Shown: positions 3,701-58,983, counted from the stretch's first letter. The stretch: 64,000 nt of DNA from Candidatus Falkowbacteria bacterium (GCA_016214745.1 JACRNW010000006.1:13367-77366); one strand, 5' to 3'. The notes: generated by a model from the sequence alone, not told the origin. Numbers and translations are program-made.

Positions 3701-3707
3701 AGAACTC

Positions 3708-3785
3708 GATGCGAATTTACGAATTAATGCGAATGAAACGAATAATTCGTATTATTCGTATACATTCGTATATTTGTATCGCTAC
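3708..3785. repeat. Cargo-less imperfect palindrome related to the termini of the GxxExxY cassette at 22285-22650
   Basis: gcgaatttacgaattaatgcgaatgaaacgaata + attcgtattattcgtatacattcgtata. The reverse complement of the left arm (tattcgtttcattcgcattaattcgtaaatt) nearly equals 22635-22665 (tattcgtatcattcgcattaattcgtaaatt). Confidence 0.6.
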
Positions 3786-4576: not shown

Positions 4577-4762
4577 TTATTTTTTCTGCGTTTTTCGGCG
4601 TTATTATCGGCGTTTTTCTGCGGGAATGATAATTTATAGAAGCAGATTTACGCGGATCAAAACGCGGATTTACGCGGAAGATTTTAAGGTTTTTAAAACA
4701 GCCCTGGGGGCTATTTAGGATTAGTATAGCACAGGTTAAAAATAGCGCAAGATCCACTCTGC

Positions 4763-4867
4763 GAATTACAAATTATTTACAAATTTACAAATAACGGAAA
4801 AATGAGTTTTACCAAATTAACGTGTTAGCAAGAATTTGTATATTTGTACCGAATTTGTAATTTGTAG
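4763..4867. repeat. Palindromic intergenic element family P1, copy 2
   Basis: gaattacaaattatttacaaatttacaaataacgg...aattaacgtgttagcaagaatttgtatatttgtaccgaatttgtaatttgtag, directly after the gyrB stop. Confidence 0.8.
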
Positions 4868-8955: not shown

Positions 8956-9083
8956 AGTCAGTTAATCTGTTAATCAGTTGATTAGTTAATCAGTTTTTGG
9001 TTTTGTTGGGTAGTTTTTGTTTGTGGCAATTTAGTCGCCATTTTTTTAACTGATTAACTATTTAACCATTTAACTATTTAACC
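8956..9083. repeat. Palindromic intergenic element family P2, copy 2
   Basis: gtcagttaatctgttaatcagttgattagttaatcagtt...ttaactgattaactatttaaccatttaactatttaacc. Confidence 0.7.
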
Positions 9084-17885: not shown

Positions 17886-17961
17886 TTTTTATAAAAACAT
17901 ATAAACATCTAAACATACAAACAATTGTTTAAATGTTTAAATGTTTGAATATTTAAATATT

Positions 17962-21212: not shown

Positions 21213-22259
21213 ATGACGCATGCGGAGTTACAAAAATTCATAGCATTTTTGATGAAGCGCGGCTGGACAGTTTTTGCGCCGGAAAAACGGCCGGGAGAGG
21301 TTGTTTATGCCGAAGTGCAAGACGCCGCCAAAGTTAAGTTGATTTCCGAACCGCCGCTGCATTCATTTAAAAGATTTTTGGTTCCGCCCGAGGAAACGCT
21401 TTTTGAGTACGAAAAAGACAAACTGAACGAGGTTCGCGATGCGGGAATAAAAATTCCGAAGCAAGTGATTTTTGGCATTAATCCGGTTGATCTGAAAGCG
21501 ATTGTAATGTTAAATCAAATTTTTGAGCGAGATCCCTGGTATCAGGAACGGATGCGGCGGACGCTTATCATCGGCCAGAGTTTAATCCCGGCCGATGTTG
21601 AACATAATATTTTTCAAATTAAATACGAAGAAGACATTTTGGAACATCTGCAGTTTGATATTTTTTTGGAAGTGCAGCCCCTCACCCCTGCCCGCAACGC
21701 CAGCGCTAGCGTGGCAGGCGGGCCAACCCTCTCCCCAAAGGGGAGAGGGGCAGAGTATTTTGTCTACACCGGTTCGGAAGAAGGGCAAAGCAGTTTGGAA
21801 GATTTCGGTTATGAAGATTATGAGCACATCGCTTTCGCCGGACCGATCAGGGAAGAGGGTTTTGATCCCATGATGGTAAAATACCGCGACGCGCTCCGAA
21901 AAACTTACAAAAAAGAAATTTGGGAAAATGATATCGGCGCGCGTTGTATTGAGTGCGGCAAATGCACGCTTATTTGCCCGACCTGTTTTTGTTTTGATAT
22001 GAAAGATCAGCCGGATTTAGTGGGCGATGGCGGGGTGCGCAAGCGCGCTTGGAGCGCTTGTTTTTATAATGATTTTTCCGAAGTCGCCGGCGGGCATAAA
22101 TTTTTAAAAACTACGGCCGAGCGGATTCATTTTTGGTATTATCATAAATTTGTCCGAATTCCGGACCAGATTCAGATTATGGGTTGCGTCGGCTGTGGCC
22201 GGTGCGCCAAGGTCTGTCCGGTGAACATAAATATTTTTAAAGTTCTGGCGGCATTGTGA
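21213..22259 (+). CDS. hydB: [NiFe]-hydrogenase group 3b beta-like subunit (4Fe-4S; AsrA/HydB-like), carrying an in-frame GC-rich insert
   Basis: Two Cys clusters ([16 protein letters not shown]; [13 protein letters not shown]). The segment [26 protein letters not shown] is encoded by the G1-related GC-rich hairpin DNA at 21676-21752. Confidence 0.65.
21676..21752. repeat. In-frame GC-rich element inside hydB (a shortened G1 derivative plus the mini-hairpin ctccccaaaggggagagg)
   Basis: Shares cctgcccgcaacgccagc with G1 copies at 14925 and 33160. The local GC jump is visible in the sequence. Confidence 0.6.
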
Positions 22260-22272
22260 TTGCGATACGAAT

Positions 22273-22662
22273 ATGCCAATACATACGAATGATACGAATA
22301 AAATCATTTATAAAGAACTTTCTTATAAGATTAATGGTATTTTATTCAGGGCGCATAATGAGTTGGGTCGGTATTGTCGCGAAAGGCAGTACGCCGACAA
22401 ATTGGAAGAACTTTGGAAAGAAAATAAGATTAATTACAAAAGAGAAAAGAAAATGCTTGGCGATTTAGTGACAGGTAACATTCCCGATTTTTGTATAGAA
22501 GACAAGATATTGTTAGAAATTAAGGCAAAAAGTTTTATTGTCAAAGAAGATTATTATCAAATACAGCGGTATTTGCAGACAAATAAAATTAAGTTGGGGC
22601 TATTAGTCAATTTTAGAAATCGTTATCTCAAACCTATTCGTATCATTCGCATTAATTCGTAA
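22273..22662 (+). CDS. GxxExxY family protein (PD-(D/E)xK-like small protein)
   Basis: 129 aa matching the GxxExxY family pattern ([22 protein letters not shown]...[45 protein letters not shown]). Confidence 0.7.
22285..22650 (+). mobile_element. GxxExxY gene cassette bounded by 16-bp inverted repeats that overlap the gene's own first and last codons
   Basis: acgaatgatacgaata at 22285-22300 against tattcgtatcattcgc at 22635-22650 (15 of 16 complementary). It sits between hydB and the gamma subunit. A related cargo-less palindrome lies at 3708-3785. Confidence 0.4.
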
Positions 22663-22707
22663 ATTAGTATCGATTTTGGATTAGTCATCTATGGATAGCA
22701 GTTTTTT

Positions 22708-23520
22708 ATGCATAACCCATATCAAACCACGACTGTTAAAATTCTAAAAATTGAGGACGAGGGTTCGCGGTCTAAACTTTTTACACTTGAAGCGCCACGC
22801 GACTTTACGGTTCGGAGCGGCCAGTTTGTGGAAATTTCTCTGCCGGGATATGGCGAAGCGCCGATTTCTCTTTGTTCTGATCCGTCAGTCAAAAATAAAT
22901 TTGAGTTGTGCGTTCGAAAAGCCGGAATGGTGACGGGCGCCCTGCACGCCTTGAAAGTGGGCGATAAAGTCGGGGTGCGCGGGCCGTACGGCCGGCCGTT
23001 TCCCGCGGAAATTGGTAAACAAAGAAATTTGCTTTTGGTGGCCGGTGGTTTGGGTTTGGAACCGTTGCGTCCCGCGATTTGGGAAATCATGAAAAACCGC
23101 GAGCAGTATAAAAAAGTCCAAATTTTTTACGGTGCTTGCGACGAAAATGATTTGCTTTTTACAAAAGATTATGATGAGTTGAAGAAAAAAATTGATCTTC
23201 ATATAACATTAGACAAACCAAAAGGCCTTCAAACTCCGGTGGCTTGCGGCACGGGCGTGGTGACAACGCTTTTTGATCACGTTAAACTTTACGAAAATCC
23301 CGTAGCATTTTTGTGCGGCCCGCCCGTGATGTATAAATTTGTTATCAAAAAATTAAAAGAATTAGCTTTTTTGGACAGTGATATATATCTATCGCTTGAG
23401 CGGCGGATGCATTGCGGCGTCGGCGTCTGCAATCATTGCGCCGTCGGAAGTTTTTTTGTCTGCCAGGACGGTCCGGTTTTTTCCTGGGCCGAGTTGAAAG
23501 ATATAAAAGGAGCGATTTAA
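22708..23520 (+). CDS. hydG: [NiFe]-hydrogenase group 3b gamma-like subunit (FAD/NAD-binding oxidoreductase with a 2Fe-2S C-terminal region, PyrK-like)
   Basis: LVAGGLGLEPLRP (NAD-binding) and the C-terminal Cys cluster CGVGVCNHCAVG...C. Confidence 0.65.
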   Translation: MHNPYQTTTVKILKIEDEGSRSKLFTLEAPRDFTVRSGQFVEISLPGYGEAPISLCSDPSVKNKFELCVRKAGMVTGALHALKVGDKVGVRGPYGRPFPAEIGKQRNLLLVAGGLGLEPLRPAIWEIMKNREQYKKVQIFYGACDENDLLFTKDYDELKKKIDLHITLDKPKGLQTPVACGTGVVTTLFDHVKLYENPVAFLCGPPVMYKFVIKKLKELAFLDSDIYLSLERRMHCGVGVCNHCAVGSFFVCQDGPVFSWAELKDIKGAI

Positions 23521-23541: not shown

Positions 23542-24813
23542 GTGTGCTTAACCATTCCCGGTAAAGTTATAGAAATTAAAGATCAAAATGCCTTACTCAA
23601 AACATCAAGTGGAGTAAGGCAAATTAATATTGGGCTCATATCACGCGTAAAAGTAGGTGATTGGCTTCTTGCTTCAATTGATTTAGCGGTCAAAAAAATA
23701 AAAGCGAAAGATGCGGAGGAAATTTTAGAATTACTCAGCGGAAAAAAAATAACAGATACAAATAACGTTAGTTTTAAATTTAGAGAAATTCTAAAAAATG
23801 CTCAAATTGGAGATTTAACAAAAGAAGAAATTATTTATTTACTTAAAACGGAAGGGCAAGAAAAGGAAGTATTATTTTCCGAGGCAGATGCGGTGTGTAA
23901 AGAAAATTTAAAAGATTTTATTTGCTTACATGCGATTGTTGAATTTTCAAATTATTGCGCAAATAATTGTTTTTATTGTGGGCTCCGGAGCGAGAATAAA
24001 ACTGTTGTCCGTTATAGAATGAGTATTTCGGAAATTGTTAAAGTCGCAAATGAAGCGGTCAACAAAATCGGCTATAAGATGATTGTGCTCCAGTCGGGCG
24101 CGGATATGCAATACACAGATGAAATGTTGGTTGAAATTATTAAAAAAATTAAAGCCAAAAGTCGGTGTTTTATTTTTATGAGTGTGGGGGAGCGAAGCGT
24201 TCAATGTTACAAAAAAATGAAAAAAGCGGGGGCGAATGGCGTTTTATTTAGATTTGAAACTTCAAATCCGAAACTTTATAATATTTTACATCCTAAAAAT
24301 ACTTTAAAGGGTGGGCTTCAAAATCGGTTGGCTCTTTTGCGAGAGATAAAAAAAATGGGATATTATATTTCATCAGGTCCGATTATAGGATTGCCCGGCC
24401 AGACTCTAGAAGATTTAGCAGATGATATTTTGATGATGAAAAAATTGAGCGTTGGCATGGCTTCAATGGGCCCGTTTATTCCGTGTGACGGGACACCCTT
24501 AGCGGGCGAGTCGCACGGCGATGTTGAACTTTCTTTAAAGACAATTGCTGCTTCTCGTCTTTTGATACCGAAGGCGCGCATTCCGGTAACAACAGCACTC
24601 GAAACACTTGATCCGCAAAACGCGCGTAAACGAGGATTGCAAAGTGGAGCCAATTCTTTAATGTTTAATTTGACTCCGGCGAAATATCGCAGTAAATACA
24701 AAATTTATCCAAATAAATTTCACGGGCGAGATAAAGATTTGGAAGATTTTGCCCTATACAAGGGAAAGGAGAGTTGGGAAATGCTCACAAGAGAATTTAA
24801 AAAATATATTTGA
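23542..24813 (+). CDS. HypC-like domain fused to a HydE-like radical SAM enzyme
   Basis: GTG start. Residues 1-70 read MCLTIPGKVIEIKDQNALLKTSSGVRQINIGLISRVKVGDWLLASIDLAVKKIKAKDAEEILELL (HypC/HupF signature MC.IP with Cys2). The radical-SAM core HAIVEFSNYCANNCFYCGLRSEN closely resembles HydE/BioB-family CxxxCxxC regions. Confidence 0.7.
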   Translation: MCLTIPGKVIEIKDQNALLKTSSGVRQINIGLISRVKVGDWLLASIDLAVKKIKAKDAEEILELLSGKKITDTNNVSFKFREILKNAQIGDLTKEEIIYLLKTEGQEKEVLFSEADAVCKENLKDFICLHAIVEFSNYCANNCFYCGLRSENKTVVRYRMSISEIVKVANEAVNKIGYKMIVLQSGADMQYTDEMLVEIIKKIKAKSRCFIFMSVGERSVQCYKKMKKAGANGVLFRFETSNPKLYNILHPKNTLKGGLQNRLALLREIKKMGYYISSGPIIGLPGQTLEDLADDILMMKKLSVGMASMGPFIPCDGTPLAGESHGDVELSLKTIAASRLLIPKARIPVTTALETLDPQNARKRGLQSGANSLMFNLTPAKYRSKYKIYPNKFHGRDKDLEDFALYKGKESWEMLTREFKKYI

Positions 24814-24815
24814 TT

Positions 24816-26189
24816 ATGGAAATAATTAATCAAGAAAAAATTTTTGATATTTTGGAAAAAACAAAAGACGCGAGCCAGAGCCGTTTTGAAGAAATAATTA
24901 ATAAAGCGAAAAAGATAAAAAGTTTAGATTTAGAAGAGGTGGGCATTTTGATAAATATTAGCGATGAAAAATTGATACAGAAAATGCAACAGGCGGCGCG
25001 CGAGATAAAAATGGCAATTTACGGGCCACGCCTGGTTTTGTTTGCCCCACTTTATGTTTCAAGTTTTTGTATCAACGACTGTGAGTATTGCGGTTTTCAT
25101 TGCCGGAATGCGACGCCGCGGAAAAAATTATCTTTGGATGAAGTGCGGCAGCAGGTGGAAATTTTGGAAGACATGGGGCACAAGAGATTGCTTTTGGAAT
25201 TTGGTGAAGATCCAAAAGAAAATCCGATTGATTATGTAACAGGTGTAATTAAAACAATTTATGCTACTAAAAAGGATCGCGGTTCAATTCGTAGAGTTAA
25301 TGTTAATATCGCCGCAACGAGCGTGGAAAATTATAAAAAATTAAAAGAAGCGGGGATCGGTACTTATCAACTTTTCCAAGAAACTTATCATCGGCCGACT
25401 TACGAAAAACTTCATTGCGGTCCAAAGGCGGATTACGATCGACAGATTACGGCCATGGATCACGCTTTTGCGGGAGGAATTGATGATTTGGGAATCGGTG
25501 TGCTGTTTGGTCTTTATGATTGGCGTTTTGAGGTTTTAAGTTTAGCGGCACACGCAGATTATATGGAGAAAACTTTTGGCGTCGGGCCGCACACTATTTC
25601 CGTCCCGCGCTTCCGTCCCGCGCCGACAGTTGATTTTAAATCAGAACACGAAGTCAGCGACAATGATTTTTTGAAACTTATCGCCATTTTACGTTTAGCA
25701 GTGCCATATACCGGAATGATTATGTCTACTCGCGAATCGCCGGAAATAAGGCGCCAGGCGTTTGAAATAGGAATTTCGCAAACGAGCGCGGGATCGCGTA
25801 CAACTCCCGGGGGATATAATGAAAAAAATAAAAAAGAAGAATTAGCTCAGTTCAATTTAAGTGATCACCGCACTTTAGATGAAATCGTCCGTGATATTTG
25901 TAAATTGGGATATTTACCGAGTTTTTGTACAGCCTGTTATCGAAGCGGCCGGACTGGCGATGACTTTATGAAGTATGCCAAAGCGGGAACGATACAAAAT
26001 TTTTGTCAACCAAACGCCATTTCAACTTTCAAGGAGTATCTTCTGGATTACGCAACGCCCGAAACGCGCGAGGTGGGGGAAGAAGTGATTAAAAGAGAAA
26101 TTAAAAAAATAAAAGACGCGCGGGTGCGTCAAAAGTTAGAAGAAAAACTCTCTCTGATAGAAAAAGGAAAACGCGATTTGTATTTTTAG
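24816..26189 (+). CDS. HydG/ThiH-family radical SAM tyrosine-lyase-like protein with a HydG-type C-terminal CX2CX22C motif
   Basis: N-terminal cluster FAPLYVSSFCINDCEYCGF. The C-terminal FCTACYRSGRTGDDFMKYAKAGTIQNFC has exactly 22 residues between the second and third Cys. Start placed at ATG 24816 (MEIINQ). Confidence 0.7.
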   Translation: MEIINQEKIFDILEKTKDASQSRFEEIINKAKKIKSLDLEEVGILINISDEKLIQKMQQAAREIKMAIYGPRLVLFAPLYVSSFCINDCEYCGFHCRNATPRKKLSLDEVRQQVEILEDMGHKRLLLEFGEDPKENPIDYVTGVIKTIYATKKDRGSIRRVNVNIAATSVENYKKLKEAGIGTYQLFQETYHRPTYEKLHCGPKADYDRQITAMDHAFAGGIDDLGIGVLFGLYDWRFEVLSLAAHADYMEKTFGVGPHTISVPRFRPAPTVDFKSEHEVSDNDFLKLIAILRLAVPYTGMIMSTRESPEIRRQAFEIGISQTSAGSRTTPGGYNEKNKKEELAQFNLSDHRTLDEIVRDICKLGYLPSFCTACYRSGRTGDDFMKYAKAGTIQNFCQPNAISTFKEYLLDYATPETREVGEEVIKREIKKIKDARVRQKLEEKLSLIEKGKRDLYF

Positions 26190-28740: not shown

Positions 28741-28885
28741 TCTAAAATTACAAATCCTAAATAAATTCAAAACTCAAATATCCAAATTCAAAACTTTTTG
28801 GATTTAGATATTTGATATTATTTGGAATTTGGTGCTTTGAATTTGGAATTTTAAAATTTTGCATTTTGATTTTTGATGTTTGATT
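28741..28885. repeat. AT-rich simple hairpin repeat cluster (family P4)
   Basis: caaatatccaaattcaaaac / tttgaatttggaattt inverted low-complexity units. Confidence 0.5.
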
Positions 28886-32056: not shown

Positions 32057-32365
32057 TTAGTAAATAGTTCTTTTAAAGGTAAAACCCCCTCACTCCAACT
32101 CTCTCCCCGAAGGGGAGAGAGAGTTTCCTCGCCCCACTGGGGAGAGGACTAAGGTGAGGGGGCAACAAGTTCCCAGTTTTCTTTTGGCGGTTTTAAATCC
32201 CTCTCTAACTCTCCCTTTAAAAAAGGGAGAGAAATTCCCCCCTTTATCAAGGGGGGATTAAGGGGGATTTGCGAAGACCCCCAAAAGAAGGCTGGGAATT
32301 TCTCTCGGCCAGAGACAGCAACGTAGTCGCCGCGGGCGACCAGTTGCGAAGAAGGAGAACGAGTC

Positions 32366-34655: not shown

Positions 34656-34913
34656 ATGCATGACCTTCACGAAGCAGACAGAATTTTAAAATTAGTTTTG
34701 GATCACGCCGAGCGCCATAAGTTGAAGTCGGTGACAAAAGTCGTTATCGGACTTGGCAGCGTGATTGAGCATGGTTCGGAAATAAATCCGGAAAATTTAA
34801 AATTTAATATTGGCGTGCTGGCGCGTCAAACTATGGCGGAAAACGCGGAAGTGGTGGTTAAAAAAATAAAAGCCGATACTTGGGAACTTGAAGAAATAGA
34901 GGGGGATAAATAA
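34656..34913 (+). CDS. hypA: HypA-like N-terminal domain protein (nickel-insertion factor) lacking the C-terminal zinc finger
   Basis: MHDLHEADRILKLVLDHAERHKLKSVTKVVIGLGSVIEHGSEINPENLKFNIG matches the HypA N-domain pattern (MHE-type N-terminus). 85 aa with no Cys; the ORF stops immediately before P1 copy 3. Confidence 0.5.
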   Translation: MHDLHEADRILKLVLDHAERHKLKSVTKVVIGLGSVIEHGSEINPENLKFNIGVLARQTMAENAEVVVKKIKADTWELEEIEGDK

Positions 34914-34917
34914 ATAT

Positions 34918-35026
34918 CTACAAATTACGAATTCGGTACAAATGTACAAATTTTTTCTAACACGTTAATTTAAAAAAACGTAATTTGTCGTTATTTGTAT
35001 ATTTGTAAATAATTTGTAATTTGTAG
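34918..35026. repeat. Palindromic intergenic element family P1, copy 3 (inverted relative to copies 2 and 4)
   Basis: ctacaaattacgaattcggtacaaatgtacaaattttttctaacacgttaatt...ttatttgtatatttgtaaataatttgtaatttgtag. Confidence 0.8.
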
Positions 35027-35032
35027 TAGCAT

Positions 35033-36253
35033 ATGAAATTAAAAACCATAGATGAAATTAAAAATTTAAAAGGCAAGAAAGTTTTAGTCAGAGTTGATTT
35101 TAATGTTCCGCTAAAAAAATCCGGAGCGAAAATTGTCGTGGCCGAGGATACGAGAATTAGAGCAGCTCTGCCCACGATTAAATATCTCCTAGAACACGGC
35201 GCGAAAGTTATTTTGATGAGCCATCTGGGCGATCCGGGCGGAAAAGTTAAAGCGTCGCTCGGTTTAAAACCGGTTGGCGCGACTCTCGCGAAAATTTTAG
35301 CCATGAAAGGCGCGGCGCCGACAGATTGGGTCGGCAAAAAGGGCTTGGGAAAAATTGACGCAATGCGAAACGGCGAGATAATGCTTTTGGAAAATTTGCG
35401 TTTTCATCCGGGTGAAGAAAAAAATGACGTAAAATTTGCCGCGGGACTTGCAAGTTTGGCGGATATTTATGTGAATGATGCTTTTGCCGCCGCTCATCGG
35501 GCGCACGCTTCAATTACCGGCGTGCCAAAATTTTTGCCAAGTTTCGCCGGGCTATTAATGGAAAAAGAAATCAATGTTTTAGGCGGACTGCTCTCAAAAC
35601 CAAAAAGGCCATTTGTGGCTTTAATCGGCGGGGCAAAAATTTCCACGAAAATAAGAGTGGTAGAAAATTTGCTTAAAAAAGTTAATTTTCTTTTACTCGG
35701 CGGAGCCTTGGTAAATAATTTTTTCGCCGCGGCCGGTTATGGCATCGGCGCTTCAGTTTTTGAAAAAAAAGAATTAAAGACAGCAAAGAAATTTTTAAAA
35801 AATAAAAAAATAGTTTTGCCGGTTGATTTTGTGGTCGGCGATTTTAAAGGTAAAAAGGCCTGGGTCGCGCCAGTGGCGCCAAGGCGCAGTGTGCTTTGTA
35901 AGAAGCCATATGCACTTCTAGATATCGGGCCCGAGACAATAAAAAAATATTCCGGAATTGTCAGAAAATCACAAACTATTGTTTGGAACGGTCCGATGGG
36001 ATATTTTGAAATTAAAAAATACAGCCACGGAACAGTCGCGCTGGGCCAGTTAATCGCCGCCAGGTCAAAAGGAAAAGTTTTTGGCGTGGCCGGCGGGGGA
36101 GAGACAATTGAAGCGCTCGGGAAAACGGGCATGGCGGAATACATTGATCATATTTCTACCGGCGGCGGAGCGATGCTTGAATTTTTGGAAGGGAAAATGC
36201 TGCCGGGGATTAAACCATTATTAAAAAATAGTAATAATTACCTAATTACCTAA
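35033..36253 (+). CDS. pgk: phosphoglycerate kinase
   Basis: 406 aa with RVDFNVP and the C-terminal GGGA motif region. The last six codons (NNYLIT) lie inside P3 copy 2. Confidence 0.9.
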   Translation: MKLKTIDEIKNLKGKKVLVRVDFNVPLKKSGAKIVVAEDTRIRAALPTIKYLLEHGAKVILMSHLGDPGGKVKASLGLKPVGATLAKILAMKGAAPTDWVGKKGLGKIDAMRNGEIMLLENLRFHPGEEKNDVKFAAGLASLADIYVNDAFAAAHRAHASITGVPKFLPSFAGLLMEKEINVLGGLLSKPKRPFVALIGGAKISTKIRVVENLLKKVNFLLLGGALVNNFFAAAGYGIGASVFEKKELKTAKKFLKNKKIVLPVDFVVGDFKGKKAWVAPVAPRRSVLCKKPYALLDIGPETIKKYSGIVRKSQTIVWNGPMGYFEIKKYSHGTVALGQLIAARSKGKVFGVAGGGETIEALGKTGMAEYIDHISTGGGAMLEFLEGKMLPGIKPLLKNSNNYLIT

Positions 36254-58052: not shown

Positions 58053-58646
58053 ATGAAAAAGAAGCTCGCAATATTTTTCGTTATAATTTTTTTGGCCAGC
58101 GCCGCCGCGATGTTTTATTGGTATATTGGCGGGATGAAAGAGGCATCGGCCGATTTAGAAGAGGCGAAGCAAGAAGCAAAAAAAGTTGAAGCGAAAGAAA
58201 CGACTGTAAAAGTATTTTTTGGCAATAAAAAAATGAATCAAAAGCAGGCTGATTGTAAGGTTGTTTTTCCGGTTGAGAGAATAGTTGATAATGATTTAAT
58301 TGTAAAAAGGCGGGCGTTTGAAGAAGTGCTTATCGGCCCAACCGCCTCGGAAGCGGCAGAAGGTTATTATTCGGCTTTTCCCAATAAAGACGAAGTGATA
58401 AAATATCGCGAAAGAATAAAACAAGAAACAGGCCAGGCTCCGTACGACGGCGATGAAATAAAAATAAGGAGCGTTAAAATTATGATTGGGATGGCTTACG
58501 TGGATCTTTCTCCGGAAATATTTTCTTACGATAAAGATAACTGCCGGGCCGAGATGATCCGAGAGCAACTTTCCCAAACCGCGAAACAATTTTCAAAAGT
58601 CGGCGGCGCGATTATCACCGTCGGTGGCGTGGAGAACGCGCTTTAA
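58053..58646 (+). CDS. hypothetical secreted/membrane-anchored protein
   Basis: 197-aa ORF with an N-terminal TM. Confidence 0.45.
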   Translation: MKKKLAIFFVIIFLASAAAMFYWYIGGMKEASADLEEAKQEAKKVEAKETTVKVFFGNKKMNQKQADCKVVFPVERIVDNDLIVKRRAFEEVLIGPTASEAAEGYYSAFPNKDEVIKYRERIKQETGQAPYDGDEIKIRSVKIMIGMAYVDLSPEIFSYDKDNCRAEMIREQLSQTAKQFSKVGGAIITVGGVENAL

Positions 58647-58648
58647 AT

Positions 58649-58772
58649 CTACAAATTACAACTCTACAAATTACAAATCATTTACAAATATACAAATAAC
58701 AGTGAAGTGTATTTTACAAAATTAACGTGTTAGTAAAAATTTGTATATTTGTACCGAATTTGTAATTTGTAG
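58649..58772. repeat. Palindromic intergenic element family P1, copy 4
   Basis: ctacaaattacaactctacaaattacaaatcatttacaaatatacaaataacag...aattaacgtgttagtaaaaatttgtatatttgtaccgaatttgtaatttgtag. Confidence 0.8.
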
Positions 58773-58785
58773 AATAGTAGAATGT

Positions 58786-58983
58786 ATGAAGAAATATTCA
58801 TGTGCACGTTGCGGAAAGGGGAGAACGCGCTACCGCACTCCGTCGCCTTTTAAAGTAATGGCGGCCGAACGGGCTAAAAGAGATAAAATATATGCCCCGT
58901 TAGAAGTTCAGCAACGTGCTTCTCAAGGCAACGCACAAAAGGCGAAGCCGACTTACGTCTCTCGTTACGTGGATAAAAGATAA
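58786..58983 (+). CDS. small basic protein with a single CxxC
   Basis: MKKYSCARCGKGRTRY... of 65 aa. Start placed after the P1 repeat. Confidence 0.3.
   Translation: MKKYSCARCGKGRTRYRTPSPFKVMAAERAKRDKIYAPLEVQQRASQGNAQKAKPTYVSRYVDKR

Follow-up and report, generated by a model that had tools for sequence, protein, structure and literature searches.

The window analysed here, a 64-kb (64,000-nucleotide) stretch of a genome of Candidatus Falkowbacteria, within the candidate phyla radiation (CPR, Patescibacteria), contains a GxxExxY gene between two hydrogenase genes. The upstream gene (21213–22259, plus strand) encodes a sulfhydrogenase beta-like protein (HydB/ShyB-like), and the downstream gene (22708–23520, plus strand) encodes a hydrogenase gamma-like protein (HydG-like, FAD/NAD-binding). 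These assignments bear out an earlier, sequence-only reading of the window, which had placed the GxxExxY open reading frame (ORF) between hydB and the gamma subunit gene. The ORF is part of a 410-bp cassette (22263–22672, plus strand) that comprises a left arm, the GxxExxY ORF, and a right arm. The bounds of the cassette are set by its inverted repeat, by empty sites in relatives, and by a filled orthologous site in relative L081. The hydB stop lies 3 nt ahead of the left arm, and the hydG ATG lies 35 nt past the right arm. Two radical-SAM ORFs lie 3′ of hydG (23542–26189). The syntenic first gene past hydG in relative L084 (423 aa) has HupF/HypC and Radical_SAM matches and is followed by a gene with Radical_SAM and BATS matches; other relatives have a separate small HypC gene in place of the L084-type HupF/HypC–Radical_SAM gene.

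The left arm (22263–22300, 38 nt, plus strand) consists of four tandem units (CGATACGAAT, ATGCCAAT, ACATACGAAT, and GATACGAATA); it includes the ATG at 22273 and encodes residues 1–9 (MPIHTNDTN). The right arm (22635–22672, 38 nt, plus strand) encodes IRIIRINS and the TAA stop and continues into a non-coding tail (aattagtatcg). Each arm has four tandem 8–10-nt units of the form nnAYRCNAAT (unit AYRCNAAT), and the two arms are complementary at 31 of 38 positions (82%). When the left flank is aligned by Smith-Waterman to the reverse-complemented right flank, the score is 41; shuffled flanks average 17.9 and never exceed 22. Inverted repeats overlapping the first and last codons had been noted before; they are present and are longer than described, with both the start and the stop codon inside the 38-nt arms. 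A sequence scan of the plus strand detected no sigma-70-like promoter or terminator within the cassette. Cassette expression would come from read-through of the host operon, and the position of the ATG, inside the left arm and 13 nt beyond the hydB stop, suggests that translation is probably coupled to the upstream gene.

The GxxExxY gene (22273–22662, 129 aa, plus strand) was identified by profile matches to TIGR04256 (GxxExxY; 61.2 bits against a cut-off of 35, E 1e-16) and PF13366 (PDDEXK_3; 67.8 bits against a cut-off of 22, E 1e-18). The window ORF matches no other Pfam or NCBIfam family and is not an HUH tyrosine transposase. Its product is 100% identical to an NCBI protein listed under Candidatus Falkowbacteria. 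A survey of the nuclease superfamily gives the function of PDDEXK_3 as ‘Unknown’ (Steczkiewicz et al., 2012; PMC3424549). Residues E37, D72, and K84 are invariant in 38 homologues, and position 82 is E or D; the window protein has E37, D72, E82, and K84. An AlphaFold2 model (pLDDT 84) has the PD-(D/E)xK alpha-beta-beta-beta-alpha-beta topology, and a Foldseek search of the PDB returned generic PD-(D/E)xK nucleases (Cas4, lambda exonuclease, EndA, and Hjc) at E 3e-3 or weaker. No solved structure matches by sequence. The protein is thus a putative nuclease that, judging from these alignments, keeps the PD-(D/E)xK catalytic residues and is under purifying selection (dN/dS 0.09).

Homologues across many CPR phyla keep the arm-encoded N-terminus (MH(T/A)NDTNK) and C-terminus (KPIRIIRI(D/N)S). 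Residues 1–9 are disordered in the AlphaFold2 model and are missing from several homologues. This predicted disorder suggests that the N-terminal overlap is an arm that has been compacted into the ORF. The last strand (residues 122–125, IRII) belongs to the modelled fold, and the C-terminal overlap of right arm and ORF is, on the model, shared coding. In CPR cassettes generally, compaction of this kind may have drawn the arms into the terminal codons of the GxxExxY gene.

We compared the window with hyd loci from relatives that have the gene order EF-Ts, PSP1, GAPDH, DUF2238, hydB, and hydG. Beta–gamma spacing, a comparison proposed in the sequence-only reading, reveals empty sites in which hydB and hydG overlap as ATGA with no insert; these were found in L082 (HydG 87% identical to the window), L086 and L087 (76%), L088 (74%), and L180 (87%). 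Relative L081 (HydG 86% identical) instead has a GxxExxY cassette at the identical junction point, with a protein 81% identical to that of the window. The L081 junctions read CTATAAG/CGATGC...GTATCG/ATTTAAGATGAAA (slashes mark the cassette bounds), compared with CTATGAAA at empty sites. Because relatives with the same gene order have the ATGA overlap without an insert, the cassette must be the inserted state. These alignments show the 410-bp unit as a discrete insert between hydB and hydG, bounded by constrained arms, that appears to have entered the ATGA stop/start overlap and to have been vertically inherited since.

The simplest reading of the shared junction point would be one old insertion inherited by the window genome and L081. 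The host phylogeny of the window, L081, L082, and L086 is star-like, with the relatives roughly equidistant, so a single insertion is not separable from an insertion with subsequent precise loss. The window and L081 copies of the GxxExxY gene give a dN/dS of 0.086 (dS 1.16), compared with 0.103 for HydG. The right arms are identical at 37 of 38 positions, non-coding tail included, despite the dS of 1.16. These values indicate that the protein and the arms are both under strong constraint.

The closest relatives at the hyd locus (L178 and L179, HydG 95% identical to the window) carry a different insert. Both match the window almost exactly over the outer 27 nt of the right arm and from there to hydG. 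Their cargo (at 1–520 in L178) is a gene for a DUF559 endonuclease-fold protein (PF04480, E 5e-34) instead of GxxExxY; the DUF559 gene runs into what is left of the right arm, its outer half, and carries a 20-nt inverted repeat of its own. The L178 and L179 contigs begin at one identical base by the cassette site, suggesting an assembly break at a repeat. In L084 (2352–4004) and L085 (HydG 81%), the hydB/hydG junction holds a 550-aa ORF that overlaps hydG by 4 nt and has no Pfam match. With GxxExxY, DUF559, or the 550-aa ORF found at one place, the hydB/hydG junction is an insertion hot spot. Judged by this comparison, the GxxExxY gene is dispensable there.

The window also contains a gene-less palindrome of the same arm family (hereafter a solo) at 3707–3781 (75 bp; minus orientation relative to its host genes). 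Its arms (3707–3744 and 3745–3781) abut. It falls in a spacer of 87 nt that runs from the nusG stop (3788) to the rplK start (3700), both genes being on the minus strand. Back-to-back arms without a gene had been reported between rplK and nusG, and the four arms in the window (cassette and solo) do align with each other, at 30–35 of 38 positions. At E<1e-8, a profile hidden Markov model (HMM) of the arm detects no arms in the 64 kb beyond these four, and the best remaining match has an E of 0.65. The claim that the right arm of the solo is near-identical to 22635–22665 needs correction: the arm nearest to the cassette right arm (22635–22672) is the solo left arm as its reverse complement (35/38), with the solo right arm at 32/38. 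The polarity of the solo relative to nusG and rplK is therefore the same as that of the cassette relative to hydB and hydG.

No such solo occurs between nusG and rplK in the closest relative, L089 (NusG 97% identical), or in L090 and L092. Their spacers consist of an unrelated 70 nt in L089, 37 nt in L090, and 15 nt in L092. Among these sequences, the nusG–rplK solo is lineage-specific. The L089 spacer (2047–2116) has a different hairpin, ACTACGTTGTTA...TTAACACGTAGA, where the solo would be, and part of it is common to L090.

Three further palindromes in the window belong to a second family, in which tandem TACAAAT arms surround a conserved 41-nt spacer. This family is related to the cassette arm family. 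One copy (4759–4867) lies 4 nt from the gyrB stop and is a weak arm-HMM match. Another (34918–35026), with the spacer reversed, lies 4 nt past an ORF stop at 34913 and 6 nt short of an ATG at 35033, and a third (58650–58786) lies 3 nt past the stop of an ORF that ends at 58646. No cognate gene for these solos was found in the 64-kb window. We also observed tandem-unit palindromes of TAAACAT, GTTAATCA, and CAAAT types at 17890–17959, 8961–9082, 28769–28859, and 32227–32306. A further inverted repeat in the window, of CCCCC...GGGGG type, is similar to those flanking the L178 DUF559 gene. The source genome thus seems to hold several tandem-unit palindrome families.

We identified 84 GxxExxY genes in 80 CPR loci from species-representative genomes. 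The loci were retrieved with three peptide patterns, one of which covers KPIRII and introduces a slight bias to right-arm-like codons; left arms, and many right arms past the stop codon, are independent of that pattern. For 81 of the 84 genes, the flanking inverted repeat scores above every shuffle (median 43, shuffle mean 17.6). An arm consensus, CGATRCNAAT-ATACNAAT-GNATRCNAAT-GATACNAAT, is common to many CPR phyla, with 4–5 units per arm at 8–10-nt spacing. In many loci the arms fall wholly outside the ORF.

The arm HMM detected 197 arms in the CPR loci, which resolve into 60 gene-sized pairs, 21 back-to-back solos, and 35 lone arms. All 60 of the ‘plus then minus’ arm pairs, whose arms are 315–455 nt apart, contain a GxxExxY gene. 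No other cargo was found between arm pairs in the 80 CPR loci; the sole other cargo at an arm remnant is the DUF559 gene of L178. Locus L146 has one dubious arm pair with no convincing ORF. Solos with mapped ends in other CPR loci (n=17) span 72–118 bp, and L004 contains six solos and one cassette within 17 kb. In all 13 testable cases, the cassette of the same genome ranks between first and sixth of 51 for similarity to the solo. By this measure, solos act like non-autonomous derivatives, each tracking the resident cassette of its genome. In L015 (1575–2222), a GxxExxY gene lies between two complete solo palindromes with loops of ~30–45 nt and not between single arms; RAYT genes with REPINs on both sides are described as arranged in this way.

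Cassettes are oriented with their hosts. We scored gene context for the 49 CPR cassettes with scorable flanks by a crude longest-ORF heuristic; the upstream neighbour is co-directional in 43 of 49 and the downstream neighbour in 42 of 49 (p about 1e-7). The host stop lies 0–7 nt ahead of the arm in 33/43 cassettes, and the host ATG lies 0–11 nt past the arm in 37/42. When the element is removed in silico, the host spacer has a median of about 9 nt, and several junctions become TAATG or ATGA overlaps. Solos keep their polarity relative to host transcription in 7/8 cases. As aligned here, both cassettes and solos are seen to lie in very short operon stop/start junctions. Selection in compact genomes, and not targeting, could account for this tight placement.

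The target-site duplications considered in the sequence-only reading are not found above chance at cassette or solo edges: of 68 elements, 4 have matching adjacent 2-mers (against an expectation of 5.4) and none matches over 3 nt or more, and when offsets are allowed the longest k-mers common to the two flanks equal the permuted expectation. GxxExxY paralogues within a genome are 30–64% identical, and each is nearer to copies in other genomes. We rejected recent transposition of gene copies on the basis that no genome has near-identical copies. Orthologous copies in L044 and L052 are 92% identical, and several divergent copies can share one genome. This pattern resembles that of the long-lived, vertically inherited RAYT type.

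GxxExxY cassettes also occur outside CPR. One lies in Bacteroides finegoldii, flanked by radA and a gene for an FAD protein; its 30-nt arms (TTCACCACAGAGGACGCAGAGGACACGGAG) show 90% complementarity, with the radA stop 1 nt ahead of its left arm and the following ATG 5 nt past its right arm. Among 53 distinct metagenome relatives with <80% identity to the B. finegoldii protein, 38 have flanking repeats that exceed their own shuffles, and solos are also present. Bacteroides-type arms have three tandem CRCNRAGG units; by clade, the arm unit is AYRCNAAT in CPR bacteria and CRCNRAGG in Bacteroidota and others. The two clades recognisably share one unit motif, AYACNAAK. A plasmid collection yielded four homologues (a clear cassette in Bacteroides, a weak 16-nt inverted repeat in Treponema, and two without repeats), and a phage collection yielded no GxxExxY homologue. 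The left-arm units of L097 (1925–1954) and of loci L098–L177 (CACAGAGGA and CACGAAGG) contain Shine-Dalgarno-like GAGG/AAGG on the sense strand, and the right arms of these non-CPR loci (L097–L177) contain the matching CCTC complements. In non-CPR cassettes, ribosome binding could thus be masked when the arms pair.

These data support the idea, raised when only the window had been read, that the gene and its repeats form a mobile cassette. Terminal repeats accompany other GxxExxY genes in CPR and in most of the Bacteroides-type clade, the 21 CPR solos add further gene-less copies, and the palindrome at 3707–3781 does align with the cassette arms. Insertion, terminal repeats, and solos are all found, but in the absence of target-site duplications the unit is not a classical MITE.

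On the best reading, a widespread family of miniature mobile cassettes would be represented in the window by one resident copy. Such a cassette consists of a putative PD-(D/E)xK-fold nuclease gene, about 125 codons long and lacking a promoter of its own, set between inverted arms of 3–5 tandem units. We consider it probable, with appreciable room for doubt, that this family is REPIN/RAYT-like or MITE/parent-like and that the predicted nuclease recognises the arm units. The nuclease would bind the tandem units, with several protomers per arm and symmetrically on both arms, and would cut at the outer CGAT ends or close by. New copies may then arise elsewhere through replication or repair by the host, in the manner of REP/RAYT systems or of gene conversion driven by an endonuclease, and not through DDE-type strand transfer. 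A 125-aa hydrolytic nuclease alone is incapable of strand transfer, which counts against this explanation.

A bolder form of this explanation is possible, and we put it forward tentatively. GxxExxY proteins might be the site-specific nucleases of the smallest self-contained bacterial mobile elements observed so far (~0.41–0.47 kb), an ancient analogue of REPIN/RAYT that uses an unrelated PD-(D/E)xK enzyme and occurs in CPR, Bacteroidota, and many other phyla. On this view the enzyme would bind to the octamer arms, with insertion targeted to operon stop/start junctions in a way that preserves host expression.

The closest known counterpart of GxxExxY cassettes is the REPIN/RAYT system, with the enzyme unrelated. 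In that system, REP doublets are mobilised by REP-associated tyrosine transposases (Bertels & Rainey; PMC3116915, PMC3337134). Both systems place a nuclease-type gene between inverted short repeats and have extragenic, gene-less, hairpin-forming doublets of the same repeats. In both, repeats and gene co-evolve within each genome, and identical gene copies and target-site duplications are absent; inheritance may be largely vertical in GxxExxY cassettes, as it is in REPIN/RAYT. The systems differ in that the GxxExxY gene encodes a 125-aa PD-(D/E)xK protein and not an HUH/Y1 (IS200/IS605-like) transposase, and in that each cassette arm has 3–5 tandem octamers in place of a single REP stem. Several divergent GxxExxY cassettes may also share a genome, and their polarity inside operon junctions is fixed. 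REPIN/RAYT systems are known mainly from Proteobacteria, whereas the hosts of GxxExxY cassettes are CPR bacteria and Bacteroidota. Overall, the GxxExxY system looks closer to REPIN/RAYT than to a recently active pair of insertion sequence and MITE.

MITEs and their autonomous parents (for example, Correia/NEMIS) offer a second comparison. MITEs are short, intergenic, non-coding palindromes that share the terminal inverted repeats of a longer coding copy and are co-transcribed with their neighbours. The solo at 3707–3781 is likewise non-coding and shares terminal inverted repeats with a longer coding cassette, and the 64-kb window has one solo of the cassette subfamily and three of the related subfamily. 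In contrast to MITE systems, GxxExxY elements have no target-site duplication and no recognisable transposase of a known class. The GxxExxY ‘parent’ is about 410–470 bp, below the smallest insertion sequences, which to our knowledge are about 600–700 bp.

An alternative that we regard as unlikely is that the cassette now works as an RNA-level module similar to a 23S rRNA intervening sequence (IVS). The paired arms would loop out the ORF, hide its start codon, and join the upstream stop to the downstream start, either as an RNase III site or as a translational-coupling bridge; solos would be the hairpin without cargo, and DNA mobility would be old, with a post-transcriptional function at present. 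Several observations are consistent with this possibility, including the strong co-orientation with hosts, the placement exactly at stop/start junctions, the ATG and stop codon inside the left and right arms, and the conserved polarity of 7/8 solos. The minimum-free-energy fold of 22250–22715 also includes a long-range stem between the arms. The pairing statistics, however, give no sign of selection on an RNA stem. Arms across the family are 84% Watson-Crick complementary, and their mismatches are dominated by transversions (187), with sense-strand G-U pairs (51) not in excess over A-C mismatches (84). At the variable unit position N, left and right arms match within an element no more commonly than among elements of the same genome, indicating no covariation beyond the genome background. 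Predicted folds are only weakly better than shuffles (z = -1.5 and -2.1), and the full palindrome of the solo is absent from its own minimum-free-energy structure. Rfam has no family for the cassette or the solo, the only match being a spurious miRNA hit on the solo (E 0.7), and the RNA-level explanation leaves the conserved, intact catalytic residues of the nuclease unexplained.

The dominance of transversions, the absence of covariation at N, and the weak folds are better explained by conserved sequence units, candidate protein binding sites spaced about one helical turn apart, than by selection for an RNA helix. ORF-bearing 23S rRNA IVSs (Leptospira and Coxiella type) contain an ORF of ~120 codons for a four-helix-bundle IVS protein. 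The cassette ORF is similarly enclosed by inverted repeats that are able to form a long stem in the transcript. Unlike the IVS, its host transcript is an mRNA operon with protein-coding flanks and no rRNA match, and its ORF encodes a PD-(D/E)xK protein.

The family could also consist of homing endonuclease genes, although we give this little credence. Under this explanation, a solo would be the site of a dimeric nuclease, and a gene at its centre would disrupt the site and spread by cutting empty palindromes, followed by gene conversion. A cassette does have the form of a solo with a gene at its centre, and the PD-(D/E)xK fold is compatible with such an enzyme. Free-standing homing-endonuclease genes, such as seg and mob of T4-like phages, are small, promoterless, and wedged between conserved genes. 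GxxExxY genes are likewise present or absent among close relatives between conserved genes, and one locus hosts different endonuclease genes among them, with GxxExxY in the window but DUF559 in L178. The empty hydB/hydG sites, however, have no palindrome at all, so the arms themselves had to be inserted. Cassettes also occur at many unrelated loci and not as one allele, and solos persist unconverted beside cassettes, such as the six in 17 kb of L004. The phage genes further differ from GxxExxY cassettes, which have their own inverted arms, gene-less copies, many loci per genome, and cellular hosts.

About as improbable is a domesticated DNA-binding or regulatory protein, for which the arms would be autoregulatory, operator-like sites, the solos would be regulon sites at operon junctions, and mobility would be historical. 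Long vertical persistence (dN/dS 0.09), the lack of recent duplicates, and tandem units whose helical-turn spacing resembles multimer binding sites all fit such a regulator. Against such a role, the catalytic residues are conserved and show no decay. The replacement of the gene by DUF559 in the closest relative (HydG 95%) implies that the host needs no GxxExxY at the hyd locus, and solos differ between very close relatives.

Coincidence, with the inverted repeat merely mirroring the coding of a conserved HTNDTN N-terminus and IRIIRI C-terminus, has a negligible chance of being correct: both peptides are conserved in homologues and IRII is a real beta-strand of the fold, but the arms reach into non-coding DNA, exist without an ORF, and lie wholly outside the ORF at many loci, and residues 1–9 are disordered and missing in several homologues. 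Separately, we ruled out an integron gene cassette: the gene has an arm at either end, its neighbours are of housekeeping type, and the ORFs and called genes examined around cassettes include no integrase.

We found no description of the GxxExxY cassette-plus-solo architecture in the searchable literature, database family notes and subscription journals aside. The cassette family is widespread and apparently undescribed. Its cassettes and solos define a repeat class in CPR genomes, which are extremely compact and in which selfish DNA is not expected. The arms account for the recurring low-complexity N- and C-termini of annotated CPR proteins, and the repeats may account for breaks in metagenome assemblies, as two closest-relative contigs end at the same base by the cassette site. 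Precise placement in translationally coupled junctions bears on how an operon tolerates a 410-bp insert.

The analysis also provides a testable hypothesis for the function of PF13366/TIGR04256, namely recognition, by the protein, of the tandem octamers on either side of the gene that encodes it. If the reading of GxxExxY as a site-specific nuclease is true, it would give this family a function and would explain termini of the HTNDTN/IRIIRI and TEDTE/SVSSV types, together with many tandem-unit palindromes. If such a nuclease were programmable via its clade-specific unit motif, it could be of practical interest.
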